Assembly (NCBI GenBank): GCA_022824945.1
Contig: JAJDYX010000013.1
Coordinates: forward strand, 513-64,512
Direction of reading: 5' to 3'
From: Candidatus Latescibacterota bacterium
GTDB taxonomy: Bacteria > Latescibacterota > UBA2968
DNA: 64,000 nucleotides
Below the pieces are notes generated by a model. It made no database searches. It was not told where the DNA came from and worked only from the letters and a program-made list of their open reading frames with translations. The position numbers were made by a program, and so were the translations under genes. Position 1 is the first letter of the stretch, and every line of letters starts with the position of its first letter. Shown here in pieces: positions 22,380 through 41,240 of the stretch.

Positions 22380-22382
22380 CTT

Positions 22383-23741
22383 ATGGAGGCGAGTGAGATT
22401 CGGATTTTGATTGCAGATGATGAGTACTATATCTGCGAGGGGCTGCGGGAGGCGATGACCAAAGACGGTTATCGGGTTGATGTGGCTTATGATGGGAATC
22501 GGGCAAAAGCGCTTATGGAAGCCCATGAGTACGATGCCGCAATTTTTGATCTCAAGATGCCGGGGCAGGATGGTCTGGCGCTTTTGAAGTGGGTAAGCGG
22601 TTCAAATCGCGAGATTGGCGTTATTGTGATTACGGCTTATGGAGAGGTGGAGACGGCTGTTGAGGCCATGCGACGGGGGGCGTATGATTATTTGACCAAG
22701 CCGGTAGATCTGAAGCGGTTGCGCCTGTCTTTAGAGCGTTTGCTGGATCACCAGGCTCTGGTCGCGGAGAATCGCGTATTGCGGGCGCGTCTGGATTCCA
22801 ATGGCGAAAATGGAGATGTTGTGCATCGAAGTGCCGCGATGGAACAGGTTTGTGATACCATAGCGCAGGCGGCAATGACCGATGTGCCGGTTTTGATTAC
22901 TGGCGAGACGGGGACGGGGAAAGAACTCGTGGCGCGTGCGATTCATCAGGCGAGTGCGCGGCGGAATGCGCCTCTGGTGGCGATGAATTGCGGGGCGTTT
23001 GCCGAGACGTTATTTGGCAGCGAGTTGTTCGGTTATGTAAAGGGCGCGTTTACGGGGGCGACGGCGGATAAGGCGGGTTTTTTTGCCGCGGCTGAAGGCG
23101 GAACGCTTTTTTTTGATGAGGTGGGCGAAATCCCTTTGCCCAATCAAGTCGATTTGCTTCGCGTCTTAGAAGAAAAAGTTTATCGCCCGGTGGGGAGCAC
23201 CAGGGCGGTGGCCGCAGATGTGCGAACTATTTTTGTCACCAATCGCGATCTCGATCGGGAAGTGGCAGAAGGGCGGTTTAGAGAGGATCTGTATTATCGC
23301 ATCAATGTGGTGCCCATTCGCCTGCCACCGCTTCGCGAACGCGTTGAAGATATTCCGCTTTTGGTCGATGTGTTTTTTGATAATCTGTGTGCGTTGCACC
23401 ACAAAGCGCGCAAGGAATTAACTCCGGATGCGATGGACAGGGTTCTGGCTTATTTTTGGCCGGGCAATGTGCGCGAGTTGAAAAATACGATTGAGCGGGT
23501 TGTGGTAACCTGTGCAGATCAAAAGGTCGATGTCGATCATTTGCCTTCTCGGATACGCGATGCCCAGAATGAGATGGATACGATAACGGTTGAACTCGGT
23601 TCTTCGCTTGAAGATGTGGAGCGCGCGTTGATCGAAAAAACACTTGCACATGTGACGGCAAATCGCAAAGAGGCTGCGGCTCTGCTGGGGATCAGTGTGC
23701 GCGCGTTGCAATACAAGATCAAGGCGTATAATCTGCGCTAA
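22383..23741 (+). CDS. Sigma54-dependent response regulator (NtrC-family bacterial enhancer-binding protein)
   Basis: It has a REC domain (ILIADDE...IFDLKMPGQDG) and an AAA+ domain with GETGTGKE, the GAFTGA loop and ESELFGY-like sequence. A Fis-type HTH sits at the C-terminus (NRKEAAALLGISVRALQYKIK). Confidence 0.92.
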   Translation: MEASEIRILIADDEYYICEGLREAMTKDGYRVDVAYDGNRAKALMEAHEYDAAIFDLKMPGQDGLALLKWVSGSNREIGVIVITAYGEVETAVEAMRRGAYDYLTKPVDLKRLRLSLERLLDHQALVAENRVLRARLDSNGENGDVVHRSAAMEQVCDTIAQAAMTDVPVLITGETGTGKELVARAIHQASARRNAPLVAMNCGAFAETLFGSELFGYVKGAFTGATADKAGFFAAAEGGTLFFDEVGEIPLPNQVDLLRVLEEKVYRPVGSTRAVAADVRTIFVTNRDLDREVAEGRFREDLYYRINVVPIRLPPLRERVEDIPLLVDVFFDNLCALHHKARKELTPDAMDRVLAYFWPGNVRELKNTIERVVVTCADQKVDVDHLPSRIRDAQNEMDTITVELGSSLEDVERALIEKTLAHVTANRKEAAALLGISVRALQYKIKAYNLR

Positions 23742-23750
23742 TTTCCAAAA

Positions 23751-23796
23751 GCGCAATTTTTGCATTTTAGTTATAAAATAGGGTGCAATTTTTGCA
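23751..23796 (+). promoter_or_regulatory. Two copies of GCAATTTTTGCAT (inverted-repeat core TGCAA-TTT-TTGCA), candidate enhancer (UAS) sites
   Basis: Identical 13-mers lie at 23752-23764 and 23784-23796, 32 bp apart. They sit about 95 and 128 bp upstream of the sigma54 promoter and directly downstream of the activator gene. Confidence 0.5.
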
Positions 23797-23883
23797 TATC
23801 AAAAGAAAGAAAAAGGGTATGAAAATAAAATTTTCTGAATGTTGTTCAATATAAACAATAGGTTATGTCTTTGAGTATATGTT

Positions 23884-23898
23884 TGGCACGGATATTGC
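23884..23898 (+). promoter_or_regulatory. Sigma54 (RpoN) promoter, -24/-12 type
   Basis: TGGCACGGATATTGC is an exact match to TGGCAC-N5-TTGC. It lies about 95 nt upstream of the PtsN-like ORF. Confidence 0.8.
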
Positions 23899-23992
23899 TA
23901 TAATATTAGGGCGCGGTTATCGCGGATTTTTGATATTGGGAGTAACTTTCTGTTTTTATTGATGTTAATGAGTTATTCTCCATTTTTAAGAA

Positions 23993-24559
23993 ATGTCTTA
24001 TAGTTTGAAGGTGCAAATTCTGCATTTTGTTGCGTGTGGGGACCCGGTGACTCAAACGACAATTTTACCTGAAGGCGATGTTTTTCAGTTTGATGTTTCG
24101 CTTCTTGTACCCGAGTTGCAATCACAGGATCGCATGGGGGCGATCAAGGAACTGGTTGATCGGCTCTATGGGCGCAAGAAGGTGGTCGATAGTTTGAAGT
24201 TTTTGCAAACTATTCTGGATCGAGAAGATCAGATGAGTACTGTTTTGGGTCGAGGTGTTGCACTGCCTCATGCGCGATGCCGATCGGTTGCTCAGCCCGG
24301 TGTGGCATTGGGTATTTCTCAGACGGGTATTGCTTTTCCCCCAGATGCAGAACCCGTTCACGTAATATGCATGGTTGCAGTACCCGATATGGCTCCTGTG
24401 CCTTATTTATCGGTTTTGAGCAATTTGGCTCTGTTGTTTAAAAATTCAGATGTGCGAGCGGGTTTGATGGCCTGCGACACGTCGATGAGTATGTATCAAT
24501 TTATGACAGAACACCTGGCGCAAATTCGCAAGGTGTCGGCTCCCCATTCTGTTTTATAG
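23993..24559 (+). CDS. PTS EIIA type-2 domain protein (PtsN / EIIA-Ntr-like)
   Basis: It contains AIKELVDRL..., ILDREDQMSTVLGRGVALPHAR (the phosphorylatable His context) and VHVICMVAVP. The N-terminal start is uncertain. Confidence 0.75.
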   Translation: MSYSLKVQILHFVACGDPVTQTTILPEGDVFQFDVSLLVPELQSQDRMGAIKELVDRLYGRKKVVDSLKFLQTILDREDQMSTVLGRGVALPHARCRSVAQPGVALGISQTGIAFPPDAEPVHVICMVAVPDMAPVPYLSVLSNLALLFKNSDVRAGLMACDTSMSMYQFMTEHLAQIRKVSAPHSVL

Positions 24560-24592
24560 TAGCTCTTCCCCATTTTTTACAGGAGGTTCCCC

Positions 24593-25444
24593 TTGCCTGG
24601 AATTATGATACAAGATAGTGAGTCTCTGGATTTGTATCTGCGAGACATTGCCTCGTCTGAACCCCTTTCGAGTGCAGAAGAAATTGAACTGGCCAAGAAG
24701 ATCCATAAAGGTTGCCAGAGATCCAGAGATAAACTGGTTGCGGCCAATCTCCGTTTTGTGGTGAGTGTGGCGCGCGAATATCAAAATCACGGGGTGCCTC
24801 TGGCCGATTTGATCAGCGCGGGCAATATGGGTCTGATGACAGCTGCCGAGCGTTTTGATGGCACGCGGGGCTTTAAGTTTATTTCCTATGCTGTCTGGTG
24901 GATCCGCCAGGCGATCCACCAGAGTCTGGCACAGGATTCGCGGGTTGTGCGGTTGCCTATTAACCGCATTGATTTGTTGCACAATATTTCAAAGGTGTCG
25001 CGCGAGTTGAGGCAGTCGAGTGAGACCGAACCCGAACCCGAAACTGTGGCCAAAGAACTCGGCGTGTCGGTGGAGATGGTTCAGGATACGCTGATGCGCG
25101 CGCGCGATGTCTGGTCTCTGGATGCGTCTTTCCGCGAGGAGGATGACCACAGTTTGTTGCATGTGTTGCCCGATAAGACGCAAAAGGCACCCGATGAGGA
25201 AGTTGTAGAAGATTCGGTGCGCGAGCAGGTAAAAGATGTGCTCACGTCTCTGGATGACCGCGAGACCGAGGTTTTGCGCCTGTATTTTGGTCTGGGTGGT
25301 GAAGAGCCTCTTACGCTCGAAGAGATCGGTGTTCGGTTCAATTTGACCCGAGAGCGCGTGCGGCAAATTAAGGAGAAAGCACTTCGCAGGTTGCGCCATC
25401 CGCGTCGTCGCTCGCGGCTCGAGCCGTTGCTGGAAGTGACTTAA
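24593..25444 (+). CDS. RNA polymerase sigma factor, sigma70 family with regions 1.2-4 (group 2/RpoS-like size)
   Basis: Region 1.2 reads LDLYLRDIASSEPLS and region 2 reads NLRFVVSVAREY...DLISAGNMGLMTAAERFD...FISYAVWWIRQAI. Region 4 reads LTLEEIGVRFNLTRERVRQIKEKALRRLR. AGGAGG lies 6 nt before the TTG at 24593. Confidence 0.88.
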   Translation: MPGIMIQDSESLDLYLRDIASSEPLSSAEEIELAKKIHKGCQRSRDKLVAANLRFVVSVAREYQNHGVPLADLISAGNMGLMTAAERFDGTRGFKFISYAVWWIRQAIHQSLAQDSRVVRLPINRIDLLHNISKVSRELRQSSETEPEPETVAKELGVSVEMVQDTLMRARDVWSLDASFREEDDHSLLHVLPDKTQKAPDEEVVEDSVREQVKDVLTSLDDRETEVLRLYFGLGGEEPLTLEEIGVRFNLTRERVRQIKEKALRRLRHPRRRSRLEPLLEVT

Positions 25445-25470
25445 ATGCGGTGAGACGTAAATGCAGTAAA

Positions 25471-25498
25471 AAAAGGCCCCTGTTTTCAGGGGCCTTTT
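25471..25498. terminator. Bidirectional rho-independent terminator (GGCCCCTG-TTTT-CAGGGGCC)
   Basis: A perfect stem is flanked by an A-run and a T-run. It is a variant of the hairpin repeated after each array gene. Confidence 0.8.
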
Positions 25499-25515
25499 GC
25501 TTTGTGCGTTCGGCG

Positions 25516-27354
25516 CTACTTGAGGTAGAGCAGTCGTCGCGTCTGTACCCCGCCGGGATAGCTCAGGCGTGCGATATAGATCCCCGTCGATAGCGAGATG
25601 CCCCGCTGGTCGAGGACATCCCACCGTATCTGGTAGGTGCCAGCGGTCTGGGACCCATCCACCAGCGTGCGTACCGGCTGACCCAGCACATTGTAGATTA
25701 CCAACTGCACCGGACCGGGGCTGGACAGATGATAGGTTATCAGGGTGGCGCTGTTGAACGGGTTGGGAAAGTTGGGCGCCAGACCGCTGGCTTCCGGCAC
25801 TGTCTCGGCTGTGAGCACGGGCTTGGATGCGGCGAGTGGTCCGACTCGTACGACCTTCATATCGCCGCCGAGCGTCAGTTCCAGTACCTGGCGTTGATTG
25901 TGATTGAGGGGAATGGAGTGCCATTGGCCGACGATTTTGCCATCGGTGTTGCTGGCGCGGGCTGTATAGTAACCAGTGACCCCATCTGCGCTGGAGATGG
26001 TGAGGGACAAATAGCCATTGGCATCTGTGACAGCACTATAGGCGTAGTCGGCTGGCTGGCCGGCGATGGATCGAGCAAATTCGACGGTCAACCCTCCGAC
26101 GGCGTCGCCCAGGACTGTGGCCGCCACTTGCGTAAGGGGACCGTCCGGGACAACATCGGGTGCGCGACCATAGAAGCCCGATCCAACGATGAAGTCAGCC
26201 GGGATTGTGCTTCCGTCTGCCCTCCGGATTTCAGCGGCAAACTCGCGTGCGTATCCCACCTTGGGGATGTCGGCTCTGTCTGTGTCGTCGGTGGGATCGT
26301 CGAAGTAATACTCCACGAAGCCGCCTTCCGGGTTACCGGTCGCCGCTTCGATGACTTGAGGCAGAATGAACTCTCCGGTCACAGCGTCAGTAACGGTCGG
26401 TATCAGAGGCCGATACTCGTATTTGTCCGGGAAGGCTGCGTGAAAAATGATGACGTTGCTGACAATATCCAGGACGTAGAGGTACACGGAACCGTGTCTC
26501 CACGGCCCGTTCGGATCCCGCAAGGCGATCCTGGCTTTCGCCTGTGCGGCTAAATCGCCGGAACTCATGAGGTCGAGAAAGTAATTCCCCGCTTGGGTAA
26601 CGAAGGCCTTCAAGGTTTCCCGATCTACCACGTCCTTGGCGGTAATGGCCGGATCGCCGTAATCGATGGCTTCATCGCTAATGGGAACCAGGTGAGATTC
26701 ATTGAGATCGAATCCCATGAGCATCACAATCGGAGCACCCCCTAAATTGGGCTCGATATAGATGGCGGCATGGCCCGAAGCGCCTGGTATGCCTGGCGAC
26801 AGTCCTGGAATGGGGGTGGTCGCGTCGAATGCGCCGTCCGGTTCCTGCGACAATGTGCCCATGACCGCGCCGAAAGCCTGGGCGGCGGTAGCAGGATCGG
26901 GAGATGCCAGATTGGCCAGATCGGTTGGAGATACGCCCAACGCAAAAAGGATCGCGCCATAAATCACAGGGTTGAGCAGCCTCCCCGTCAACGACATGTC
27001 CTTCGCGTGAATGTACACTCTGCCGTCGGGAGTCAGGCTCACGATGTACGTGGAACCGGAACGCCAAATCCCATCGTCCAGCCTTATGATGCATCCGATA
27101 TATACCGCTTGTTCCGCGGTCGCGGCCCCCTGAGCATATTCTCTGGACCGCTCTCTCACGGCCAGCGCGAAGTCCATCAGGGTCGCGCTTCCGTCTTCCA
27201 CTTGTTGCGCCGTCACACGCGGATCCGCAGGAGGCGTCACGCCGGGAGGAAGTGGACAATCTGCCAGGGCGGGAGGCGCATTGGAAAAGACGCCAGCCAG
27301 CACGAGCAGTCCAACAACGGGAATCATGTAGGTGGGTAATGTTCGAGTTTTCAT
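25516..27354 (-). CDS. Array paralog 1: exported tandem Cache-like protein with beta-sandwich and T9SS C-terminal sorting domain
   Basis: It has a signal peptide (MKTRTLPTYMIPVVGLLVLAGVFSNAPPALA) and a conserved Cys pair. The Cache_2-like motif is LRDPNGPWRHGSVYLYVLD...FHAAFPD...EGGFVEYYFDDPTDDTDRADIPKVGYAREF...GSGFY. The C-terminal sorting domain is FPNPFNSATLITYHLS...LLYLK. An SD GGGAGGA precedes ATG 27354. Confidence 0.8.
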   Translation of the reverse strand: MKTRTLPTYMIPVVGLLVLAGVFSNAPPALADCPLPPGVTPPADPRVTAQQVEDGSATLMDFALAVRERSREYAQGAATAEQAVYIGCIIRLDDGIWRSGSTYIVSLTPDGRVYIHAKDMSLTGRLLNPVIYGAILFALGVSPTDLANLASPDPATAAQAFGAVMGTLSQEPDGAFDATTPIPGLSPGIPGASGHAAIYIEPNLGGAPIVMLMGFDLNESHLVPISDEAIDYGDPAITAKDVVDRETLKAFVTQAGNYFLDLMSSGDLAAQAKARIALRDPNGPWRHGSVYLYVLDIVSNVIIFHAAFPDKYEYRPLIPTVTDAVTGEFILPQVIEAATGNPEGGFVEYYFDDPTDDTDRADIPKVGYAREFAAEIRRADGSTIPADFIVGSGFYGRAPDVVPDGPLTQVAATVLGDAVGGLTVEFARSIAGQPADYAYSAVTDANGYLSLTISSADGVTGYYTARASNTDGKIVGQWHSIPLNHNQRQVLELTLGGDMKVVRVGPLAASKPVLTAETVPEASGLAPNFPNPFNSATLITYHLSSPGPVQLVIYNVLGQPVRTLVDGSQTAGTYQIRWDVLDQRGISLSTGIYIARLSYPGGVQTRRLLYLK

Positions 27355-27547
27355 CGCGATGGTCCTCCCTTTAAGGAATGGGCGGTGAAGGAATAATGAA
27401 AAATACCCTGGCAAGGAAATAATAGACGATATATAGTTTCAGGGACAATATATCGCCCCTATTAGATGGTGACAAGTCCTATCTCAATCGCAAATTTGTC
27501 CTGCTATTCAAAATTTGTTCCAGTTTCCATAGGGTGTTGTTTTTGGC

Positions 27548-27576
27548 TTGACAGCGCGTGAATCGAAAAATATACT
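27548..27576 (+). promoter_or_regulatory. Near-consensus sigma70-type promoter (TTGACA-17 nt-TATACT)
   Basis: TTGACA lies at 27548-27553 and TATACT at 27571-27576. The promoter is about 45 nt upstream of the lipoprotein gene start. Confidence 0.55.
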
Positions 27577-27619
27577 GTAGTTGTTCATTTTTCGGATAAT
27601 AATTTGCAGGGAGATTGAG

Positions 27620-28126
27620 ATGAAACGCCTGATGATATGCCTTCTTTCCGCGTTCGCGCTGCAGGGCTGTAGTGATCGTTTGTCAGATATGCAAACGCAA
27701 CTATCAGGTACCTGGGTCTTGCAAACTCGTCAATTGCAAGATGGGACTGTGTTGCGTGGCCCGCATATAAAAGGGTCGCTTTTTTGGGAGCCAATCAGTT
27801 CTCGAAAAGCACATATTACGCTCAGTCTTCTGGAGGACTTAAAAGACGGTACGCCCAGACGATTTAATTATGCTGGCAGTACGTATGAAATTTCTACATC
27901 GGCGATTACGCGAGCCAGGCATGTGCTGGTTCGCCAGGGGTATCGGTCTTCTGCCGAAGCACCGATGTCGATTTATCCCAAGGCCAAGAGCGTGAAGGGC
28001 AAAATTACGGTTGAGGGCGATAAAATTGAGATTGCACACGATGAGCAGCAGTGGGTTTTTGAAGGTAATACGATGACGGCATCCTATGAGGGGGCATGGG
28101 TTGATACATGGGCGCGGGTTCAGTAG
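27620..28126 (+). CDS. Lipocalin-like lipoprotein
   Basis: It has a signal peptide with a lipobox (LLSAFALQGC) and a GTWVL motif typical of lipocalin-like domains. It is 168 aa and is convergent with array paralog 2. Confidence 0.65.
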   Translation: MKRLMICLLSAFALQGCSDRLSDMQTQLSGTWVLQTRQLQDGTVLRGPHIKGSLFWEPISSRKAHITLSLLEDLKDGTPRRFNYAGSTYEISTSAITRARHVLVRQGYRSSAEAPMSIYPKAKSVKGKITVEGDKIEIAHDEQQWVFEGNTMTASYEGAWVDTWARVQ

Positions 28127-28152
28127 GGTGTTGTGAAAAAGACGAGGCGCAT

Positions 28153-28190
28153 AAAAAAATGCCCCTGAATTAATTTTCAGGGGCATTTTT
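28153..28190. terminator. Bidirectional terminator (ATGCCCCTGAA-loop-TTCAGGGGCAT)
   Basis: A perfect stem is flanked by A7 and T5. Confidence 0.8.
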
Positions 28191-28202
28191 CTTTGCTCAG
28201 CA

Positions 28203-30005
28203 CTACTTGAGGTAGAGCAGGCGTTGCGTCTGCACCCCACCGGGATAGCTCAGACGCGCGATATAGGTCCCCGTTGATAGCGAGACGCCCCGCTGGTCGA
28301 GGACATCCCACCGTATCTGGTAGGTGCCAGCGGCCTGGGACTCATTCACCAGCGTGCGTACCGGCTGACCCAGCACATTGTAGATCACCAACTGCACCGG
28401 ACCGGGATTGGATAGGTGGTAGGTTATCAGGGTGGCGCTGTTGAAAGGGTTGGGAAAGTTGGGCGCCAGACCGCTGACCTCTGTCTCGGCTGCGAGCACG
28501 GGCTTGGCTGCGGCCAGTGGTCCGACTTGTACGACTTTCATCTTGCCGCCCAGTGGCAGTTCTAATACCTGGCGTTGATTGTGATTGAGGGGAATGGAGT
28601 GCCATTGGCCGACGATCTCACCATCGGCGTTGCTGGCGCGTGCTTGATAGTAACCATTCACGCCATCTGCGTTGGAGATGGTCAGGGACAAAGAGCCATT
28701 AGCATCTGTGACGGCGTTATAGGCGTAGTCGGCTGGCTGTCCGGCGATGGATCGAGCAAACGCGACGGTCAATCCCTCGACGGCGTCGCCTATGACCGTG
28801 GCTTCCACTTGTGTAAAGGGACCGTCCGGGACAACGTCGGGTGCGCGCCCATAAAAACCCGATCCGGCGATGATGTTGAGTGGGACGACTTTTCCGTCGG
28901 CTGTCTGGATTGAACCTTTGAACTCGCGTGAGTAGCCCACCTTGGGGATGTCGGCGCTGTCGGTGTCGTCATTGGGATCGTCGAAGTGGTATTCCCAAAA
29001 GCCGCCTTCCGGGCTACTGGTCGCCGCGGCGAGGAGCAGATCCCAAACGAGTTCCCCAGTAATGGCGTCTCGGGTAATGCCCGGAGGTCGAAGCTCAAAT
29101 TTGTTCGGGAATCCTCCGTGAACCCGGGTGAGGTTGCTGATGAGATCTATGATATAGATGTACACGTTACCGTGCCTCCAGGGGCCGTTCGGATCTCGCA
29201 AGGCGATTTTGGCTTTAGAGATAGCGGTTAAATCGCCGGTCTTCTGGATTTCGATAAACCACTCCCCCGCTTGCGTGACGAAGGTCTTCAGGGTTTCTCG
29301 ATCTACCACATCTCTGGCGGTAATGGTTGGGTCGCCGTAATCGAGGTCTTCTTGAACCACGTGAGTTTCATTGAGATGGAATCCGGCAAGCAGCATGATC
29401 GGTCCTAAATTGGCCGAGGAATATACGGTGACATAGCCGGAGGCACCCGGTATCCCCGGACTTAGACCCGGAATAGGGTTGGTCGCATCGAATGCGGCAT
29501 CAGGTTCTTGCATCAATGTATTAAATACGGCGGCACCAGCCTGGGCGGCGACGGCAGGATCGGGGGAAGCCAGGTCGGCCAGAACGGTTAAGGGTACTCC
29601 CAGCGCAGAAAGGATCGCGCCGTAAATCACGGGATTGAGCAGTCTGCCGGACAATGCCATATCTTTTGTGTGAATGAGCACCCTGCTGTCGGGCGTCAGT
29701 ATCACAAGGAAGGTGGAACCGGAATGCCAATGGCTCCCATCTTCCCTGATAAGACATCCGAAGTAGAACAATTGGTCTGGCGTCGATGCTCTCTGGCTGA
29801 ATTGATCTCTCACGCCCCGTGCGAAGTCCATCAGGCTGGCGCTGCCGTCTTCCACCTGTTGTGCCGTCACAGCCGGAGCCGCAGGAGGCGACACGCCGGC
29901 CGGGAGTTGACAATCTGCCAGGACGGGATGCGCATTAAGAAAGACGCCGGCGAGTACGAGCAGTCCGACGACGGGAATAGTGAGCAATGTTCGAGCTTTC
30001 ATCAC
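28203..30005 (-). CDS. Array paralog 2: exported tandem Cache-like protein with T9SS C-terminal sorting domain
   Basis: At 600 aa it has the same architecture as paralog 1. It has a signal peptide, the Cache_2-like motif LRDPNGPWRHGNVYIYIID...EGGFWEYHFDDPNDDTDSADIPKVGYSREF and the FPNPFNSATLITYHLS...LLYLK sorting domain. Confidence 0.8.
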   Translation of the reverse strand: MMKARTLLTIPVVGLLVLAGVFLNAHPVLADCQLPAGVSPPAAPAVTAQQVEDGSASLMDFARGVRDQFSQRASTPDQLFYFGCLIREDGSHWHSGSTFLVILTPDSRVLIHTKDMALSGRLLNPVIYGAILSALGVPLTVLADLASPDPAVAAQAGAAVFNTLMQEPDAAFDATNPIPGLSPGIPGASGYVTVYSSANLGPIMLLAGFHLNETHVVQEDLDYGDPTITARDVVDRETLKTFVTQAGEWFIEIQKTGDLTAISKAKIALRDPNGPWRHGNVYIYIIDLISNLTRVHGGFPNKFELRPPGITRDAITGELVWDLLLAAATSSPEGGFWEYHFDDPNDDTDSADIPKVGYSREFKGSIQTADGKVVPLNIIAGSGFYGRAPDVVPDGPFTQVEATVIGDAVEGLTVAFARSIAGQPADYAYNAVTDANGSLSLTISNADGVNGYYQARASNADGEIVGQWHSIPLNHNQRQVLELPLGGKMKVVQVGPLAAAKPVLAAETEVSGLAPNFPNPFNSATLITYHLSNPGPVQLVIYNVLGQPVRTLVNESQAAGTYQIRWDVLDQRGVSLSTGTYIARLSYPGGVQTQRLLYLK

Positions 30006-30106
30006 GGTGGTCCTCCCTTAAGGAATGGGTGATAAGGAATAAGCGTAGGAAAAATAATATGAAGATGCCCTGATAAGCAAATAAATTTTTTTGTCGTAAA
30101 TTCCAT

Positions 30107-30139
30107 AAAAAATGCCCCTGAATTTTCAGGGGCATTTTT
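30107..30139 (-). terminator. rho-independent terminator (ATGCCCCTGAA-TT-TTCAGGGGCAT)
   Basis: It is the same hairpin family with flanking A/T runs. It lies downstream of paralog 3. Confidence 0.8.
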
Positions 30140-30159
30140 GTAGCTATGAGAAATCGGCA

Positions 30160-31980
30160 CTACTTGAGGTAGAGCAGGCGCTGCGTCTGCACCCCACCGG
30201 GATAGCTCAGACGTGCGATATAGGTCCCCGTCGATAGCGAGATGCCCCGCTGGTCGAGGACATCCCACCGTATCTGGTAGGTGCCTGCGGCCTGGGACTC
30301 ATTCACCAGCGTGCGTACAGGCTGACCCAGCACATTGTAGATTACCAACTGCACCGGACCAGGGCTGGACAGGTGGTAGGTTATCAGGGTGGCGCTGTTG
30401 AAAGGGTTGGGAAAGTTGGGTGCCAGACCACTAACTTCCGGTACTGTCTCGGCTGCGAGCACGGGCTTGGCTGCGGCGAGTGGTTCGACGCGTACGACCT
30501 CCATATTGCCGCCGAGGGTCAGTTTCAGGACCTGGCGTTGATTGTGATTGAGGGGAATGGAGTGCCACTGGCCGACGATTTCGCCATCGGCGTTGCTGGC
30601 GCGGGCTGTATAGTACCCACTCACGCCATCTGGGTTGGAGATGGTGAGGGACAAAGAGCCATTGGCATCTGTGACAGCGCTATAGGCGTAGTCGGGCTGT
30701 TGGCCGGCGATGGATCGAGCAAATGCGACGTTCAACCCTTCGACGGCGTCGCCTGAGACCGTGGCCTCCACTTGTGTAAAGGGACCGTCCGGGACAACGT
30801 CGGGTGCGCGCCCATAGAAACCCGATCCAATGATGTAGCGTAATTGGAATGTGGTTCCGTCAACCTCTTTGATTGTACCGGTGAACTCGCGTGCGTAGCC
30901 TACCTTGGGGATGTCGGCGCGATCTGTGTCGTCGTTGGGATCGTCGAAATAATATTCCACGAAGCCGCCTTCCGGACTACTGGTCGCCGCTGCGATGACC
31001 TGCGGCAGAACGAACTCTCCGGTCACTACGTCTCGCACAGTCGGTATCAGAGGTTTAAACTCGAATCTGTCCGGAAACGCTCCGTGGAAGAAGATTATGT
31101 TGGAGATACGGTCCAGGATGTAGAGGTACACGGAACCGTGTCTCCAGGGCCCATTTGGATCCCGCAAGGCGATCCTGGCTTTTGAAGAAGCGGTCAGATC
31201 GCGAGTCTGGTGTAACGCGAAAACGAACTTCCAGGCTTCCTCGACGAAGGCCTTCAGGGTTTCTCGATCTACCACGTCCTTGGCAGTAATGGCCGGGGCA
31301 CCGTAATCGATCTCTTCTTTTACTACGTGAGTTTCGTTGATATCGAATCCGGCGAGCAGCACGAGCGGGAGCCGAAAATTGACTGAAAAATATACGGCGG
31401 CATGGCCGGCAGCACCTGGTATTCCAGGTCGCAGGCCTGGAATAGGAGTGGTCGCATCGAATGGGGCATCCGGTTCTTGCGACAATGTGTTAAAGACGGC
31501 GGCACCCGCCTGGGCGGCGGTAGCAGGATCGGGAGACGCCAGATTCGCCAGATCGGTTGGGGATACGCCCAGTGCCAAAAGGATTTCGCCATAAATCAAT
31601 GGGTTGAGTTGCCAGCCCGACAATGCCATGGACTTCGCATGAACGTATATCCTGCCGTCGGGCGTCAGTGCCACAAGGTAGGTGGAACCGGAACGGTAAG
31701 CAGACCCCTCCTGCCTGGTGAGACAGATATAGTATGCCATCTCTTCCAGAGTCGTTATGTTTTGGGACAAGGTCTTATATTGATTCCTCATTTCCAGCGT
31801 GAAGTCCACCAGGCTGACACTGCCGTTTTCCACTTGTTGCGCCGTCACACCCGGTTCTGCAAGAGGCGTCACGCCGGGAGGGATTCCACAATTTGCCAGG
31901 GCGGGAGGCGCATTAGAAAAGACACCAGCCAGCACGAGCAGTCCGACAATGGGAATAGTGTATGATGTTCGAGTTTTCAT
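30160..31980 (-). CDS. Array paralog 3: exported tandem Cache-like protein with T9SS C-terminal sorting domain
   Basis: It is 606 aa counted from MKTRTSYTIPIVG, with an SD AGGAGGA upstream. It has the same motif set and C-terminal sorting domain. Confidence 0.8.
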   Translation of the reverse strand: MKTRTSYTIPIVGLLVLAGVFSNAPPALANCGIPPGVTPLAEPGVTAQQVENGSVSLVDFTLEMRNQYKTLSQNITTLEEMAYYICLTRQEGSAYRSGSTYLVALTPDGRIYVHAKSMALSGWQLNPLIYGEILLALGVSPTDLANLASPDPATAAQAGAAVFNTLSQEPDAPFDATTPIPGLRPGIPGAAGHAAVYFSVNFRLPLVLLAGFDINETHVVKEEIDYGAPAITAKDVVDRETLKAFVEEAWKFVFALHQTRDLTASSKARIALRDPNGPWRHGSVYLYILDRISNIIFFHGAFPDRFEFKPLIPTVRDVVTGEFVLPQVIAAATSSPEGGFVEYYFDDPNDDTDRADIPKVGYAREFTGTIKEVDGTTFQLRYIIGSGFYGRAPDVVPDGPFTQVEATVSGDAVEGLNVAFARSIAGQQPDYAYSAVTDANGSLSLTISNPDGVSGYYTARASNADGEIVGQWHSIPLNHNQRQVLKLTLGGNMEVVRVEPLAAAKPVLAAETVPEVSGLAPNFPNPFNSATLITYHLSSPGPVQLVIYNVLGQPVRTLVNESQAAGTYQIRWDVLDQRGISLSTGTYIARLSYPGGVQTQRLLYLK

Positions 31981-32320
31981 TACGATGGTCCTCCTTCTTG
32001 AAAACATAAGCCCTATAGCTGGTTGTACTCTTTCTGAGAAGCTATTTTAAAACTATGGGAAAAAATGTTGAAAACGTATTCATCTTAGAATAATAAAATA
32101 TATTTTAGTCAGCAAATAAATTTTCTGTCATAAACTGAGGGGCATAGGCATGCCATGTTTAAGCATGTGATGATGGCAATTTGGTATTGAAGTTGAGCAG
32201 AGATCTCCTGACTTTACATTGTGTTAAAAAAGGATTTTTCATATATTTATGAGAGAAGTATATCCAGGCTGCACTAAAAGAGCAAAATGGGAGTGCGAGA
32301 ACAATACCGGAGAAAATTAG

Positions 32321-32560
32321 ATGGCAGCAATTGTTTTCGATACCTACGCCTTCGTAAAAGAACTGACTCAGGCCGGGATGCCGGAAGAACAGGCGGAGGT
32401 GTTGGCGCGTTCACAGGCGGCACTGATTGACGAAAAATTGGCTACGAAGCAGGATTTACAAGAACTGGAATTGCGTCTGAAGCACGACTTGACCCTGCGT
32501 CTTGGTTCCATGATGGTGGTCGCTATTGGCGTGGTCGCTGCTCTGGTAAAGCTATTGTGA
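32321..32560 (+). CDS. Small coiled-coil protein with C-terminal TM helix (DUF1640-like)
   Basis: The 79-aa product reads FDTYAFVKELTQAGMPEEQAEVLA...ATKQDLQELELRLKHDL followed by the hydrophobic tail MMVVAIGVVAALVKLL. Confidence 0.6.
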   Translation: MAAIVFDTYAFVKELTQAGMPEEQAEVLARSQAALIDEKLATKQDLQELELRLKHDLTLRLGSMMVVAIGVVAALVKLL

Positions 32561-32576
32561 GGACAAGCAGGGATAG

Positions 32577-32640
32577 GTCACAACACAATGACGGCATCTT
32601 ATGAGGGGGCATGGGTTGATACATGGGCGCGGGTTCAGTA
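32577..32640 (+). pseudogene. 3' remnant of a second lipocalin-like lipoprotein gene
   Basis: It encodes ..NTMTASYEGAWVDTWARVQ*. It is nearly identical at nucleotide level to 28061-28126 and is followed by the same spacer and terminator. Confidence 0.8.
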
Positions 32641-32665
32641 GGGTGTTATAAAAAAGACGAGGCGT

Positions 32666-32702
32666 AAAAAAAATGCCCCTGAATTTTCAGGGGCATTTTT
32701 TT
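32666..32702. terminator. Terminator hairpin (ATGCCCCTGAA-TT-TTCAGGGGCAT)
   Basis: It belongs to the same hairpin family, flanked by A8 and T7. It lies downstream of paralog 4. Confidence 0.8.
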
Positions 32703-32711
32703 AGTTCGGCA

Positions 32712-34496
32712 CTATTTGAGGTAAAGCAGGCGTTGCGTCTGCACCCCACCGGGATAGCTCAGGCGTGCGATATAGGTCCCCGTCGATAGCGAGACGCCCC
32801 GATGGTCGAGGACATCCCACCGTATCTGGTAGGTGCCAGCGGCCTGGGATTCATTCACCAACGTGCGTACGGGTTGCCCCAGCACATTGTAGATCACCAA
32901 CTGCACCGGACCGGGGCTGGACAGGTGGTAGGTTATCAGGGTGGCGCTGTTGAACGGGTTGGGAAAGTTGGGCGCCAGACCGCTGGCTTCCGGCACTGTC
33001 TCGGTTGCGAGCACTGGCTTGGCTGCGGCCAGTGGTTCGACGCGTACGATCTTCATACCGCCGCCCAGGGTCAGTTCTAATACCTGGCGTTGATTGTGAT
33101 TGAGGGGAATGGAGTGCCACTGGCCGACGATTTCGCCATCGGCGTTGCTGGCGCGGGCTGTATAGTACCCACTCACGCCATCTGGGTTGGAGATGGTGAG
33201 GGACAAATAGCCATTGGCATCGGTGACGGCGTTATAGGCGTAGTCGGGCTGTTGGCCTGCGATGGATCGCGCAAACGCGATGGTCAACCCTTCGACGGCG
33301 TCGCCTGAGACCGTGGCCTCTACTTGTGTAAGGGGACCGTCCGGGACAACGTCGGGTGCGCGCCCATAAAAACCCGATCCGACGATGAAGTTGACCGGGG
33401 CTACGCGTCCGCCTAAATTGAGTTCACCAGTGAACTGTCGGGCGTAACCCACCTTGGGGATATCCGCGCTGTCTGTGTCGTCGGTGGGATCGTCGTAGAA
33501 ATACTCCACGAAGCCGCCTTCCGGACTGCTCTTCGCCGCTTCGAGGACCTGCGGCAGTATGAGCTCTCCGGTACGGCCGTCTCGGGCAATACCTACGAGA
33601 GGTCGCAGCTCGAATCTGTCTGGAAACGCACCGTGGAACAGGACTATGTTGCTGGTGAGATCCAGGACGTAGAGGTACACGGAACCGTGTCTATAGGGTC
33701 CGTTCTCATCCCGCAAGGCGATTCTGGCTTTCGACAAAGCGGTCACCAGATCGCCGCTCGTCTGGTGTTCGAGAAACCACTCTCCCGCTTGCGTGACAAA
33801 GGCCTTCAGGGTTTCTCGATCTACCACGTCCCTGGCCGTAATGGTTGGGTCGCCGTAATCGATGACTTCTTCAACTACGTGAGATTCGTTGAGATCGAAT
33901 CCCGCGAGCAGCACGATCGGGGTCCGGAAACTGGGCGATATAATTGCGGCGGCATAGCCGGAAGCCCCTGGGATATCGGGCACATTGAACGGGCCGCCAT
34001 CCCCGGCTACCGCGGCAGCGAGAGCGGCCAGGGCCGCAGCACGGTCGGTGAGGTCGGCTGGATTGATTCCCAATGCTTGAAGGATCGCGCCATATATCAA
34101 GGGGTTGAGCAGCCTGCCCGACAATGACATGTCCTTTGCGTGAACGAATATCCTGCTGTCAGCCGTCAGTTGAATGAGGTAGGTGGAACCGGAACGCCAG
34201 GGGCTCCCCTCGTGCCTGATGAGACATCCGAGGTAAAACGCTTCTTCTACAGTCGCTACTCCCTGGCTAAATTGATCTCTGGCAGCCAGCGCGAAGTCCA
34301 TCAGGCTGGCACTGCCGTTTTCCACCTGTTGCGCCGTCACACGCGGGTCCGGAGGAGGCGTCACGCCGGGAGGGAGTGGACAATCTTCCTGCGTTTGCGC
34401 CAGGGGCGGAGGCGCATTGAAAAAGATGCCGGCCAGCACGATTAGTCCGACAATGGGAATCAGGTATTCTGAATTGAGCAATGTTCGAGTTTTCAT
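32712..34496 (-). CDS. Array paralog 4: exported tandem Cache-like protein with T9SS C-terminal sorting domain
   Basis: At 594 aa it has the same architecture as the other paralogs. It has a signal peptide, the motif LRDENGPYRHGSVYLYVLD...EGGFVEYFYDDPTDDTDSADIPKVGYARQF and the C-terminal sorting domain. Confidence 0.8.
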   Translation of the reverse strand: MKTRTLLNSEYLIPIVGLIVLAGIFFNAPPPLAQTQEDCPLPPGVTPPPDPRVTAQQVENGSASLMDFALAARDQFSQGVATVEEAFYLGCLIRHEGSPWRSGSTYLIQLTADSRIFVHAKDMSLSGRLLNPLIYGAILQALGINPADLTDRAAALAALAAAVAGDGGPFNVPDIPGASGYAAAIISPSFRTPIVLLAGFDLNESHVVEEVIDYGDPTITARDVVDRETLKAFVTQAGEWFLEHQTSGDLVTALSKARIALRDENGPYRHGSVYLYVLDLTSNIVLFHGAFPDRFELRPLVGIARDGRTGELILPQVLEAAKSSPEGGFVEYFYDDPTDDTDSADIPKVGYARQFTGELNLGGRVAPVNFIVGSGFYGRAPDVVPDGPLTQVEATVSGDAVEGLTIAFARSIAGQQPDYAYNAVTDANGYLSLTISNPDGVSGYYTARASNADGEIVGQWHSIPLNHNQRQVLELTLGGGMKIVRVEPLAAAKPVLATETVPEASGLAPNFPNPFNSATLITYHLSSPGPVQLVIYNVLGQPVRTLVNESQAAGTYQIRWDVLDHRGVSLSTGTYIARLSYPGGVQTQRLLYLK

Positions 34497-34765
34497 TACG
34501 ATGGTCCTCCTTCTTGGATAAATAAGCCCCTATAGCTGTGTCTTCTTTCCGAGAGGCTCTTTTTTAAACCTATGGAGCAATAAGAAACGTTTGTAACCGA
34601 AGCGCAGACAGAATAAGAAAAAATACCCTGATAAGCAAATAAATTTTCTATACATAAATCCCATTGCTTTTAATATTGGCGAAACACTTATGAAACCTGC
34701 TGGAAATATAATAAGCGTAAGTTTTGGCTATTATTTCGGTGCTGTTTCACAGTAAAATATGGGTC

Positions 34766-36106
34766 ATGACTATGAATGATGGAAGCCGCGAATACGTGCT
34801 GAATGCCGCGTCAGAACACGGGGTCAAATTTATCCGGCTCTGGTTTACGGATATTTTGGGTTTTCTAAAGAGTGTCGCAATTCCGGTCGAGCAACTCGAT
34901 GGCGCTTTGACCGAGGGGATCGGTTTTGATGGGTCGTCCGTAGAGGGCTTTGCGCGCACTGACGAGAGCGATATGATCGCTATGCCCGATCCCAATACGT
35001 TTCAGGTGTTGCCTTTTCGCCCGCAAGAAGGCGGCACGGTTGCGCGTATGTTTTGCGATATTCTCCAGCCGGGGGGAAACCCATATCGGGGAGATCCGCG
35101 CTGGGTGCTGAAAAAGAATTTGAGACGCGCAGGCGATATGGGCTTTACGTTTTACGTGAGTCCAGAGATGGAGTTTTTCTATTTTGAGAAACCCGAGGTT
35201 CCTCTCGAGGGTTTGGATGAGGGGGGGTATTTTGATCAGACGTCTCTGGATGTGGCGAGTGATTTGCGCCGGGATACGGTGTTGACGCTTGAGAAGATGG
35301 GGATTGAGGTGGCGTCCAGCCATCACGAGGATGCGCCGAGCCAGCACGAGATCGATTTGCTTTATACCGATGCGCTGACGATGGCGGACAATGCGATGAC
35401 TTATCGTTTGGTCGTGAAGGAGATTGCCGTGAAACACGGCGTTTGGGCGACGTTTATGCCCAAGCCTCTTTTTGGTGTTAATGGCAATGGTATGCATACG
35501 AATATGTCGCTGTTTAAGGGGGAGGCTAACGCGTTTTACGACGCTGAAGATGAATACCATCTGTCGGATACGGCGCGGTATTTTATCGCGGGCTTGCTCA
35601 AACATGCCTGTGAGATTACGCTGGTGACGAATCAGTGGGTCAATTCGTATAAGCGATTGGTGCCGGGTTATGAAGCGCCTTTGTACACGACGTGGTCGGT
35701 GGTCAATCGATCGGATCTGGTGCGCGTGCCAGCCTATTCTCTGGATAAGGAGAGTACGACGCGCATTGAATACCGGTCGCCCGATCCGGCCTGCAATCCC
35801 TATCTGGCATTTGCAATTATGTTGGCTGCGGGATTGGAGGGCGTTGAAAAGCGCTATGAGGTGCCGCCGCCTATGGAAAAGAATGTGGCTGAGATGTCCA
35901 GTGCCGAACGGGAGGAAGCGGGTATTAAGACCCTGCCTCTGGATCTGTCGCAGGCTATTGATCTGGCCGAGGGTAGCGATTTGCTTCGCAATGCCCTGGG
36001 AGATCACATTTTTGAGAAGTTTATTGCGAATAAGAAGATCGAATGGGCCAATTATAGGGCGCAGGTGACGGGTTACGAACTGGATCAACATCTCAAGATT
36101 TTGTGA
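34766..36106 (+). CDS. glnA: Glutamine synthetase, type I (GSI-alpha-like; no NLYDLP adenylylation motif seen)
   Basis: It shows KFIRLWFTDILGFLKSVAIP, FDGSS.EGF, SPEMEFFYF, the HHEDAPSQHEID region and NGNGMHTNMSLF. The start is either ATG 34766 or ATG 34772. Confidence 0.92.
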   Translation: MTMNDGSREYVLNAASEHGVKFIRLWFTDILGFLKSVAIPVEQLDGALTEGIGFDGSSVEGFARTDESDMIAMPDPNTFQVLPFRPQEGGTVARMFCDILQPGGNPYRGDPRWVLKKNLRRAGDMGFTFYVSPEMEFFYFEKPEVPLEGLDEGGYFDQTSLDVASDLRRDTVLTLEKMGIEVASSHHEDAPSQHEIDLLYTDALTMADNAMTYRLVVKEIAVKHGVWATFMPKPLFGVNGNGMHTNMSLFKGEANAFYDAEDEYHLSDTARYFIAGLLKHACEITLVTNQWVNSYKRLVPGYEAPLYTTWSVVNRSDLVRVPAYSLDKESTTRIEYRSPDPACNPYLAFAIMLAAGLEGVEKRYEVPPPMEKNVAEMSSAEREEAGIKTLPLDLSQAIDLAEGSDLLRNALGDHIFEKFIANKKIEWANYRAQVTGYELDQHLKIL

Positions 36107-36115
36107 GGTACAAGG

Positions 36116-36361
36116 ATGCCAAAAAAATGCAGACCATGTCCCCGAGGTTTATACGACGGGTGCCCGATTCCGCGGGAGTTGTGTAGCGAAGATTACGCGC
36201 GTACGGGCGAGTGGCATTGTTTGATGTTTTTGCGCGAGTTTGAGTGGTTTGTGTTTGGTACTTCTGGGGAAGACGCCGCGCCAGAGGCTCTCAGAACGGG
36301 AGAAGAAATTGTGTCGCTGGAGGATTTGATGCGGGTGCTGGAGGGAATGGACGATGGGTGA
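36116..36361 (+). CDS. Small Cys-rich hypothetical protein (81 aa)
   Basis: A GAGG lies 7 nt before the ATG. The start is 10 nt after the glnA stop, and the stop overlaps the hemE start (ATGGGTGA). The N-terminus is CRPCPRGLYDGCPIPRELC. Confidence 0.5.
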   Translation: MPKKCRPCPRGLYDGCPIPRELCSEDYARTGEWHCLMFLREFEWFVFGTSGEDAAPEALRTGEEIVSLEDLMRVLEGMDDG

Positions 36362-38325: not shown

Positions 38326-38340
38326 TTTGAGCGTTTTTCG

Positions 38341-38428: not shown

Positions 38429-38444
38429 AAAATTAGATAGCGAT

Positions 38445-39821: not shown

Positions 39822-39835
39822 CAGACGTTAGGAAC

Positions 39836-39990: not shown

Positions 39991-40016
39991 GATTTTTTAT
40001 TTTAATTGATGAATCC

Positions 40017-41238: not shown

Positions 41239-41240
41239 CA

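Follow-up and report, generated by a model that had tools for sequence, protein, structure and literature searches.

Cache domains of the sCache_2 and dCache_2 families (PF17200 and PF08269; solved examples 2QHK, 4EXO, TlpB 3UB6 and Adeh_3718 4K08) are the closest described relatives of a group of exported proteins that we find encoded in a 64,000-nucleotide stretch of DNA (hereafter, the window) from a sponge-associated Latescibacterota genome. The window proteins have the sequence signature of these sensors in common with them, along with a predicted PAS-like topology, a long N-terminal helix and a non-cytoplasmic location. dCache_2 arose through duplication of sCache_2 (Upadhyay et al. 2016, PMC4822843), an origin that the tandem modules of the window proteins fit, and in that census all Cache families except SMP_2 occur with known output domains, with VWA_N and VGCC_alpha2 among the recorded partners. 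Unlike the Cache domains of chemoreceptors and kinases, those in the window lack flanking transmembrane (TM) helices and any HAMP, MCP, kinase or cyclase output. The eukaryotic calcium-channel alpha2-delta subunits and CACHD1 likewise use an extracellular Cache domain for binding and have no kinase or other prokaryote-type output attached to it. They belong to the dCache_1 subfamily, however, and are membrane-anchored in an ion-channel complex, and the likeness holds at the level of the superfamily.

Two export systems offer further parallels. Type A cargo of the type IX secretion system (T9SS; TIGR04183), such as the gingipains and Flavobacterium ChiA, also combine a Sec signal peptide with an Ig-like or beta-sandwich domain and an ~80-aa sorting domain at the extreme C-terminus, but where those cargo have a protease, glycosidase or adhesin as functional domain, the window proteins have a Cache sensor fold, and their host is a Latescibacterota sponge symbiont. 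Type Va autotransporters (PF03797) provide the second parallel, since in relatives from Proteobacteria and other phyla a Cache passenger of ~370 aa precedes the barrel, whereas the window proteins have no barrel. Our literature search returned no paper linking Latescibacteria to T9SS or type IX secretion, and none that uses Cache domain, autotransporter and passenger together as terms. The eukaryote-like repeat proteins of sponge symbionts (ankyrin, LRR, WD40, TPR) are similarly enriched in sponge-associated genomes across phyla, and those of the LRR and WD40 kinds in Latescibacterota share their T9SS sorting domain with the Cache proteins. The Cache fold differs from them in being prokaryotic and normally small-molecule-binding, not a scaffold of protein–protein repeats.

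The window contains four intact, adjacent paralogs on the minus strand, of 612 aa (paralog 1, 25516..27354), 600 aa (paralog 2, 28203..30005), 606 aa (paralog 3, 30160..31980) and 594 aa (paralog 4, 32712..34496), exactly where the original prediction had placed them. Each comprises a signal peptide, a Cys pair, two Cache-like modules, a transthyretin-like sandwich and a T9SS type A sorting domain. Two small plus-strand ORFs (27581-28126 and 32321-32560) break up the array. The ORF of paralog 1 can be extended to a TTG at 27414, and its MKTRT start matches the other paralogs in the alignment; paralog 2 aligns with the other three over its full length. An AAGGAGG motif lies immediately upstream of the paralog 3 ATG at 31980, while paralog 4 has a shorter insertion in its first module and a hairpin and T-run directly 3′ of its stop codon. 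The four are ~75% identical overall, with 59-67% identity across the first ~395 aa and near-identity across the last ~210 aa, and all are under purifying selection (omega 0.35-0.53 in the N-terminal and 0.15-0.27 in the C-terminal part). Database matches are P0021 for paralog 1 (100% identical) and P0081 (100%) and P0085 (98%) for paralog 2; P0081, whose source field is blank, is probably the window's own protein. The closest database relative of paralog 4 is P0109 (98%). The intact frames, an omega of 0.15-0.53 and the near-identical proteins (95-100%) in other assemblies largely refute a reading of these genes as pseudogenes.

The AlphaFold2 model of paralog 3 (aa 31-395, pLDDT 94.5) contains two PAS/Cache-like modules. 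The first (aa 30-225, 31306..31893 on the minus strand, pLDDT >90) harbors the Cys31-Cys86 pair and a helical insertion, and the second (aa 226-392, 30805..31305, minus strand) is of sCache_2 type and matches both dCache_2 and sCache_2. Both have a predicted PAS-like topology, and hhalign shows them to be homologous (probability 98%, E 2e-13). Compared with sCache_2 sensors, the first module is strongly diverged, with its helical insertion and disulfide-type Cys pair, and in the second the conserved Lys is preceded by an acidic insertion, DDPxDDTD. The loop holding this insertion, FDDPxDDTDxADIPKVGY, is almost invariant, and the general sCache_2 signature Y...H...GGF.EY...K..Y...G.Y is retained. 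Against a gathering score of 26.5 bits, dCache_2 scores 27.3 bits in paralog 3, 26.2 in paralog 1 and 17.4 in paralog 4; paralog 2 taken alone has no dCache_2 or Pfam Cache match. Relatives match Cache domains more strongly, at up to 65 bits and with E-values down to 7e-90. The second module of paralog 3 has a weak profile match to 2QHK, and among its relatives one family member matches 2QHK and 4EXO (E 2e-10) and TlpB 3UB6 (E 6e-9), with 4K08 also matched by a relative. PAS or Cache tandem sensors make up nearly all of the Foldseek matches listed for this region, with no substantial enzyme-fold match among them. As these Foldseek E-values are weak (best 5.9e-4) and the TM-scores low, the fold assignment is based mainly on HMM and profile homology. 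Together, the model, the structural matches and the profiles bear out the predicted pair of Cache-like modules, the second of sCache_2 type, and assign the N-terminal two thirds to the Cache/PAS type of fold and not to an enzyme.

The remaining parts of the protein point to export. In the paralogs, the sole consistently hydrophobic stretch by hydropathy covers aa ~5-30 and ends in A-x-A, consistent with the predicted Sec signal peptide. In paralog 3 this putative peptide (aa 1-29, 31894..31980, minus strand) begins MKTRT and has a hydrophobic core and ALA followed by N-C; it is the only hydropathy window above 1.6. The conserved Cys pair was also confirmed: of 87 aligned relatives with a residue at each of the two positions, 85 keep both Cys31 and Cys86, as numbered in paralog 3. 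C-terminal to the Cache modules lies a transthyretin/prealbumin-like beta-sandwich (aa 398-500, 30481..30789, minus strand, pLDDT about 75-90). Foldseek matches transthyretin, a prealbumin-like fold, with probability 1.0 and a target TM-score of about 0.45-0.5, and these matches, reported without query coordinates, presumably belong to aa 398-500 of the model. The original prediction had called this domain CarboxypepD_reg-like; the beta-sandwich holds, but the CarboxypepD_reg HMM has no match in the paralogs. The T9SS type A sorting domain of paralog 3 (aa 517-606, 30163..30432, minus strand; NFPNPFNSAT...RLLYLK) matches TIGR04183 at aa 523-602. All four paralogs score 41-45 bits on this model (44.8, 42.5, 42.2 and 41.4 for paralogs 1 to 4) against a cutoff of 23, in agreement with the sorting domain proposed from the sequence. 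FlgD_ig scores 31.7 bits in paralog 1 and 34.1 in paralog 3, the latter above the gathering score, and Pfam Por_Secre_tail scores 20-21 bits, below its gathering score of 27. The sorting domain is near-invariant among 118 family members. The window holds no T9SS component genes. In related Latescibacterota chromosomes, all nine further ORFs scanned carry the sorting domain above cutoff, which lends indirect support to the presence of T9SS machinery, and these are mostly leucine-rich-repeat or WD40/beta-propeller proteins; in a motif scan, 29 ORFs had the tail and lacked the Cache motifs.

None of the four paralogs has a consistent internal TM segment by hydropathy or an output domain by HMM, as predicted, and binding could thus not be relayed through the protein itself. 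In the wider family, the 58 longest representatives likewise lack output domains (HAMP, MCP, kinase, GGDEF or EAL). Their extra domains are solely autotransporter barrels, T9SS tails (in one relative of CHU_C type), Ig-like domains and further Cache repeats, so the paralogs are not fragments of transducers. The ~370-aa Cache region also occurs, with similar signal peptides and at 52-68% identity, in metagenome-assembled genomes (MAGs) of at least eight phyla, including chromosome-level MAGs of Alpha- and Gammaproteobacteria, Terriglobia, Nitrospirales, Opitutales and Binatia. This range overlaps the 59-67% that separates paralogs within the window. Most carriers come from sponge or coral metagenome series, as judged from MAG names and sample series. 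A T9SS tail is found in Latescibacterota and in Bacteroidota/Rhodothermaceae; in other phyla (Proteobacteria, Nitrospirales, Binatia and others) the module usually sits on a type V autotransporter barrel, which scores above gathering for PF03797 and ends in a terminal aromatic residue. These fusions strengthen the earlier view of the Cache proteins as stand-alone exported cargo. Because the module has no signalling part and rides on different export devices in bacteria of many phyla within the same MAG series, it is probably a surface binding protein. The reading that we favor, with somewhat better than even confidence, is that each gene encodes an exported non-signalling binding protein, displayed on the surface or released, and shared horizontally among sponge symbionts. 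Of the extracellular ligand-capture or ligand-sensing family originally envisaged, export without an output domain stands, and the ligand role is suggested by the predicted fold.

A possible, though less likely, alternative is that these are host-interaction or adhesion factors, in which the target of the Cache-fold region would be a protein, glycan or matrix component of the host instead of a diffusible small molecule. On the symbiont surface such factors would help in recognizing the host, attaching to it or avoiding phagocytosis, a role much like the one proposed for the eukaryote-like repeat proteins. Leucine-rich-repeat and WD40 proteins of related genomes bear the same sorting domain, and the format used in other phyla is that of autotransporter passengers, which are typically adhesins, proteases or toxins. 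The family crosses phyla and is seemingly confined to sponge or coral MAG series, and its multi-copy arrays differ in the number of copies. Among 118 members, variability peaks at aa 61-90 and 251-270, in the surface helices of the two modules, and at aa 191-210 and 371-380, which are strands and a hairpin, while the acidic loop hardly varies; this pattern would fit a varying exposed surface, like that of an adhesin or antigen, at least as well as it would fit differences in ligand specificity. Surface Cache domains of sponge Thaumarchaeota have been put forward as host-recognition candidates (Haber et al. 2021, PMC7848895). However, characterized sCache_2 domains bind small molecules, among them 4EXO, 3UB6 and 4K08, and the general sCache_2 signature is retained here.

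The genomic setting bears on a third, improbable reading, that of accessory proteins of the periplasm or envelope that pass a ligand or ligand-bound signal to a transporter or membrane sensor with a gene of its own, on the model of LuxP with LuxQ or of the solute-binding proteins of ABC or TRAP systems. A Cache fold with a signal peptide and no output domain of its own would suit such a role, as would the position of the array between nitrogen-regulation genes (glnD, ntrB, ntrC, ptsN) and glnA. Yet the T9SS tail and autotransporter barrels direct the module past the outer membrane, and across 32 non-Latescibacterota loci there is no conserved neighbor gene, transporters and sensors included. 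Moreover, the array genes lie on the strand opposite to their neighbors, and the glnA-to-sigma setting, a conserved synteny in one lineage with 1 to 4 copies, looks less like an operon than like a spot prone to insertions. Secreted enzymes (a hydrolase in a PAS-like scaffold) or decaying chemoreceptor or kinase fragments are most improbable: T9SS cargo are often hydrolases and phmmer gave weak, non-significant matches to carboxylesterases (E 0.04-0.7), but there is no enzyme-family HMM match, the listed structural matches include no substantial enzyme fold, and the intact, selected frames, near-identical proteins in other assemblies and 58 long relatives free of transducer domains speak against remnants.

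Under the favored reading of an exported binding protein, the signal peptide would deliver each protein to the periplasm, where a disulfide probably joins the two conserved Cys of the first module. By the known behavior of its family, the type A sorting domain would then direct type IX secretion across the outer membrane, followed by release or attachment to the cell surface. The working part would be the tandem sCache_2-derived, dCache_2-like modules, held apart from the sorting domain by the transthyretin-like spacer, and their action would be extracellular, on a binding target in the sponge tissue that is most likely a small molecule accommodated by the Cache pocket. The Cache region behaves like a mobile passenger, probably passed among bacteria of many phyla, mostly of sponge and coral holobionts by MAG name, which each lineage would have joined to its own surface-export device, be it a T9SS tail or an autotransporter barrel. 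In Latescibacterota it appears to have expanded into old, individually conserved paralogs, in arrays of one to six copies. What is new here is a portable Cache passenger on different surface-export devices in different phyla, its variable-copy arrays in Latescibacterota and, in related genomes, a single sorting domain common to Cache, leucine-rich-repeat and WD40 proteins.

The four minus-strand open reading frames (ORFs) lie exactly where the original prediction placed them: paralog 1 at 25516–27354 (612 aa), paralog 2 at 28203–30005 (600 aa), paralog 3 at 30160–31980 (606 aa) and paralog 4 at 32712–34496 (594 aa). Aligned end to end, they share ~75% identity. The initial ~395 residues are only 59–67% identical, and from GSGFYGRAPDVVPDGP on, the final ~210 residues are nearly identical. 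Nei–Gojobori estimates give dS 0.52–0.67 and omega 0.35–0.53 for the N-terminal part, and dS 0.20–0.28 and omega 0.15–0.27 for the C-terminal part. With omega between 0.15 and 0.53, all four paralogs are functional and under purifying selection, and their 3′ ends have either been homogenised or are of younger age. The genes had been described as a tandem array; all four paralogs are present, but their contiguity is broken by two plus-strand ORFs. One (27581–28126) encodes 181 aa with a lipoprotein-type signal (LQGC), has no family match and is conserved at 92–98% at the same place in the loci of relatives. The other (32321–32560) encodes 79 aa with a hydrophobic C-terminal tail and shows 96% conservation in L003, a homologous locus from another genome. 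An AAGGAGG motif lies directly 5′ of the paralog 3 ATG, and a hairpin and T-run lie downstream of paralog 4.

The proposed Cache fold of the N-terminal part is borne out by Pfam dCache_2 matches, AlphaFold2 topology, Foldseek matches to sensors and the matches of a divergent relative to solved sCache_2 domains. Residues ~240–372 (paralog 3 numbering throughout) match dCache_2 at 27.3 bits in paralog 3, 26.2 in paralog 1 and 17.4 in paralog 4, against a gathering score of 26.5; the Pfam scan gave no dCache_2 match in paralog 2, and only paralogs 1 and 3 scored for sCache_2, at ~14 bits. The window proteins owe their assignment to the Cache superfamily in part to transitive homology via full-length relatives, such as P0136, which is clearly over threshold (dCache_2 65.1 bits, sCache_2 43.9 bits). 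The full-length AlphaFold2 model is confident (pLDDT >90) for residues 31–390 and less so (~75–90) for residues 400–500, and a separate model of residues 31–395 reaches pLDDT 94.5 and pTM 0.90. Both modules adopt the same modelled topology of two N-terminal helices, two strands, helices and three strands, a PAS-like alpha/beta fold whose long N-terminal helix recalls solved Cache domains. They match each other in a profile–profile comparison (probability 98%, E = 2e-13) and carry parallel conserved Arg, Tyr and His residues (R89/Y101/H114 in the first module, R273/Y285/H299 in the second). This homology fits the published account in which dCache_2 derives from sCache_2 by duplication (PMC4822843).

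Transthyretin matches swamped the Foldseek list for the full model, and the N-terminal part was therefore modelled and searched separately. Nearly all matches listed for residues 31–395 are PAS or Cache tandem sensors, including NifL, HIF-2a/ARNT, LOV-PAS, the TlpA dCache domain (6E09), LuxQ (3C30) and vpHK1S-Z8 (3LIE), with weak E-values (best 5.9e-4). A PDB sequence search with paralog 3 was uninformative on this part, returning an invasin Ig-domain match and non-significant esterase matches. As the family profile matched 2QHK alone among PDB sequences and not significantly (E = 0.66), we used P0147, a divergent multi-repeat relative. The repeats of P0147 give matches to 2QHK and 4EXO (both E = 2e-10), TlpB (3UB6; 6e-9) and 4K08 (4e-5), and this relative provides the strongest link between the window proteins and solved Cache domains. 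The prealbumin-like sandwich predicted for the middle domain is supported by fold, with Foldseek returning transthyretin-type sandwiches, but not by HMM. The conserved Cys pair holds up well: Cys31 and Cys86 are both kept in 85 of the 87 aligned relatives having residues at both positions, and probably form a disulfide. By analogy with other Cache domains, the region may bind a small molecule.

The export signals are equally consistent among the four proteins. A hydropathy scan and reading of the sequences by eye agree on the predicted Sec signal peptide, with a positively charged start, a hydrophobic core at residues ~9–29 and an A-x-A motif. This hydrophobic stretch (residues ~5–30, ending in A-x-A) is the only one common to all four paralogs. 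The other two above-threshold hydropathy windows fall within confidently folded strands or helices, in keeping with the predicted lack of a transmembrane helix; beyond the signal peptide, the scan reveals no consistent hydrophobic segment. At the opposite end, the expected sorting domain of the type IX secretion system (T9SS) is recovered in every paralog by NCBIfam TIGR04183 (T9SS type A sorting domain; 41.4–44.8 bits against a cutoff of 23), and in 4/4 proteins the match sits at the extreme C terminus, ending four residues before the stop codon. Pfam Por_Secre_tail scores 20–21 bits, under its gathering score of 27, and FlgD_ig, whose fold is related to the sorting domain, scores 32–34 bits against 27. 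The sorting domain is modelled with pLDDT <50, and the autotransporter beta-domain PF03797 is absent from the four proteins in the Pfam scan. No T9SS component is recognisable among the window genes. A pair at 56086–58869, a 651-aa TPR protein (56086–58041) followed by a DUF4292 protein (58099–58869), was considered as a PorW/SprE candidate and rejected, as the TPR protein reaches 38.8 bits where the model of this T9SS lipoprotein requires 250; the match could be generic TPR similarity. From their tails, the four paralogs are predicted to be exported by a T9SS, and their final location is probably the cell surface or the medium.

Cache domains are usually regarded as the input heads of membrane receptors. 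HMM scans found no output-domain matches in the four window proteins, and a Pfam scan of the 58 longest family representatives found no HAMP, MCPsignal, HisKA, HATPase_c, GGDEF or EAL. The predicted absence of signalling output thus extends to the longest homologs, which lack transducer domains, and the window genes are therefore not transducer fragments. In a 2016 census, every Cache family but one was found with signalling output (PMC4822843), and the four proteins depart from that view of Cache domains as paired with signalling outputs.

A word-indexed search yielded 1416 relatives among 8000 candidates scored, and the best 120 of these are nearly all ~600 aa long, 65–80% identical and present several per chromosome. 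An exhaustive HMMER search with residues 31–400 returned 448 clusters (50% identity) among 1.84 billion representatives: the Cache-passenger family is real but narrow. Counting Pfam matches with E ≤ 0.001, dCache_2 occurs in 42 of the 58 longest representatives (best E = 7e-90) and sCache_2 in 26; Autotransporter and Cache_3-Cache_2 each occur in 11, FlgD_ig in 8, Por_Secre_tail in 6 and CHU_C in 1. Outside Latescibacterota, the gene usually runs on into an autotransporter barrel with a terminal aromatic residue, and PF03797 is above its gathering score in three relatives (P0126, P0137, P0142). The predicted signal peptide is recognisably alike across phyla, and NCBI annotation is generic ("T9SS type A sorting domain-containing protein", "cache domain-containing protein").

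The passenger also varies in unit number and ending. Tandem runs of three to seven Cache units occur in some relatives. Long multi-unit forms were seen at two loci from other genomes (L021, 9935–15346; L025, 9671–15331) and in the database relatives P0121 and P0147; such polypeptides contain either three full two-module units or as many as seven single sCache_2 units, and span 1400–2142 aa with an autotransporter-like barrel at the end. At L037, a locus of a Gammaproteobacteria MAG, two ORFs (9965–11185 and 11182–12492) with overlapping stop and start codons take the place of a single homolog, encoding a 406-aa passenger and a 436-aa autotransporter-like barrel; possible explanations are a frameshift, an assembly error and a genuine two-gene form. 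Two further relatives (P0139, P0149) end in a hydrophobic stretch with basic residues behind it, as in ...LLLVYLISGRWRPVRQAVLA, reminiscent of PEP-CTERM-type anchors, and in three others (P0132, P0133, P0222) the motif FTTLPVIP recurs ahead of an acidic tail.

In a scan of one genome per species, full-length matches were confined to MAGs of Latescibacterota and MAGs labelled Gemmatimonadota. By themselves, the N-terminal ~400 residues recur at 52–66% identity in MAGs of Alpha-, Gamma- and Deltaproteobacteria, Nitrospirales, Terriglobia, Bryobacterales, Aminicenantes, Opitutales, Binatia and Gemmatimonadetes. Many of these MAGs are chromosome-level, so mis-binning cannot account for the phylum spread. 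Since cross-phylum identity overlaps that among the window paralogs, horizontal transfer is the simplest account of how the Cache passenger spread. The bin names RHO, IRC and COS agree with three of the sponge hosts studied by Robbins et al. 2021 (PMC8163846), namely Rhopaloeides, Ircinia and Coscinoderma, and UUID-named chromosome-level MAGs (prefixes OZ, OX, OY and CBD) look like those of sponge genome notes reporting Latescibacteria MAGs.

Latescibacterota often carry arrays of 2 to 6 copies. The stretch from the sigma-factor gene to glnA (25445–34723) is syntenic in close relatives, whose GlnA proteins are 95–97% identical, and comparison with homologous loci from other genomes reveals one copy in L002 and L013, two in L001 and L004, three in L005 and four in both L003 and the window. 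With one to four Cache–T9SS genes by genome, this interval is a copy-number-variable spot. Paralogs 1, 2 and 4 have counterparts 95–100% identical elsewhere in the database, and the Cache regions of the window paralogs differ among themselves by 33–41%. The paralogs are old and individually maintained, in an array that gains and loses members. Hardly any change is seen in the sorting domain or the acidic loop DDPxDDTDxADIPKV among 118 family members, and variability peaks at residues 61–90, 191–210, 251–270 and 371–380, of which the helix patches 61–90 and 251–270 occupy equivalent positions in the two modules.

The array is flanked by genes for GlnD (18501–21170, minus strand), a PAS histidine kinase like NtrB (21234–22379), a sigma-54 activator like NtrC (22383–23741), a PtsN-type EIIA (23993–24559) and a sigma-70 family factor (24593–25444) on one side, and by glutamine synthetase (glnA, 34724–36106) on the other. 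We found no functional link between this nitrogen-regulation cluster (18501–25444 and 34724–36106) and the array, and set the idea aside, as the flanks are conserved synteny, the copy number ranges from one to four and the array genes are on the opposite strand. Clustering of neighbours at 32 loci from other phyla gave no family common to more than six loci, and an operon partner was rejected for want of a conserved neighbour there. The window array adjoins no transporter genes, and a reading as ABC, TRAP or TTT solute-binding proteins was discarded in the absence of conserved transporter linkage at the 32 loci or in the window.

Other features of the window were noted in passing. Plus-strand GC skew is strongly positive almost window-wide (1–64000), especially at 36001–48000; it is 0.1–0.34 over most of the window, stretches of minus-strand genes included, and ~0 only at 48–58 kb. 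Such values are unusually high for a bacterial chromosome. Two adjacent BNR-repeat proteins (46199–47224 and 47328–48599) look like sialidases or glycosidases and match neuraminidase and rhamnosidase models weakly; at the start of the window, 209–2746 encodes a type I restriction R subunit. The BNR-repeat and restriction genes fit the lifestyle of a host-glycan-degrading, phage-exposed symbiont.

The sorting tag is not restricted to Cache proteins. A motif scan of related Latescibacterota loci found 29 ORFs with the same tail and without Cache motifs; all nine that were tested exceed the TIGR04183 cutoff (28–38 bits), and most of these are leucine-rich-repeat (LRR) proteins, like XopAC, XopL or internalins, or WD40/beta-propeller proteins. 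Tagged repeat-protein ORFs include L057 7997–10300, L064 2064–5747, L050 6731–10633, L056 8786–10609, L073 5423–10315 and L014 14682–19937. Large tail-bearing ORFs in related loci were considered as PorU candidates and proved to be LRR and beta-propeller proteins. As the tag is nearly invariant on many unrelated proteins, we infer a working recognition system. LRR and WD40 are among the eukaryote-like repeat classes enriched in sponge symbionts (PMC8163846), and the shared tail suggests that eukaryote-like repeat proteins of Latescibacterota symbionts may be T9SS cargo.

We consider it probable, with moderate confidence, that the window proteins are surface-displayed or released binding proteins that act in sponge tissue and relay no signal through themselves. 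A role of the Cache proteins in host contact or adhesion is the leading alternative, less likely yet worth keeping in view: LRR and WD40 proteins bear the same tail, other phyla use the autotransporter format, and variation is concentrated on surface helices. That they act as periplasmic partners of a sensor or transporter is improbable, since export modules sit on the same passenger and the 32 loci have no conserved neighbours. Finally, no enzyme fold has a substantial match among the Foldseek matches listed for the N-terminal part, the genes are under purifying selection, and an enzyme or a pseudogene is very hard to credit.

More tentatively, the binding proteins may belong to a surface family specific to sponge and coral holobionts, with tandem sCache_2 as a mobile passenger that acts, alongside LRR and WD40 proteins, as a trap or recognition module for host molecules. 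Here a prokaryotic sensor fold would have become a free passenger outside the cell, passed horizontally from phylum to phylum and fitted to the recipient's own export device, be it T9SS, type V autotransporter or others. At the symbiont surface, the passenger would trap or recognise a host-derived molecule; it would be exported as one set with the LRR and WD40 proteins and would take part in host–symbiont recognition. In sponge Thaumarchaeota, Cache Pfams are enriched and a surface recognition role has been proposed (PMC7848895), which points in the same direction but concerns other proteins.

Cache domain, T9SS tail and autotransporter are each of a known kind; their combination is undescribed in the literature searched, where we found no paper joining Cache domain, secretion and type IX secretion, none joining T9SS with Latescibacter and none on a Cache domain as an autotransporter passenger. 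A paper on sponge Latescibacterota mentions neither secretion nor Cache (PMC12993501). According to Robbins et al. 2021 (PMC8163846), the secretion systems commonly put forward for eukaryote-like proteins are present in few sponge lineages, and the tag shared with LRR and WD40 proteins suggests an export route for such proteins in Latescibacterota. For sponge symbiosis, the family offers a concrete, expressible candidate of ~370 aa common to unrelated symbionts. If the recognition-module reading is true, this would be the first described bacterial Cache domain working without any transducer. For Cache biology, a large, conserved family with the Cache region as exported cargo, on a T9SS tail in some lineages and an autotransporter barrel in others, indicates that bacteria also use the fold as a free-standing binding module outside the cell.
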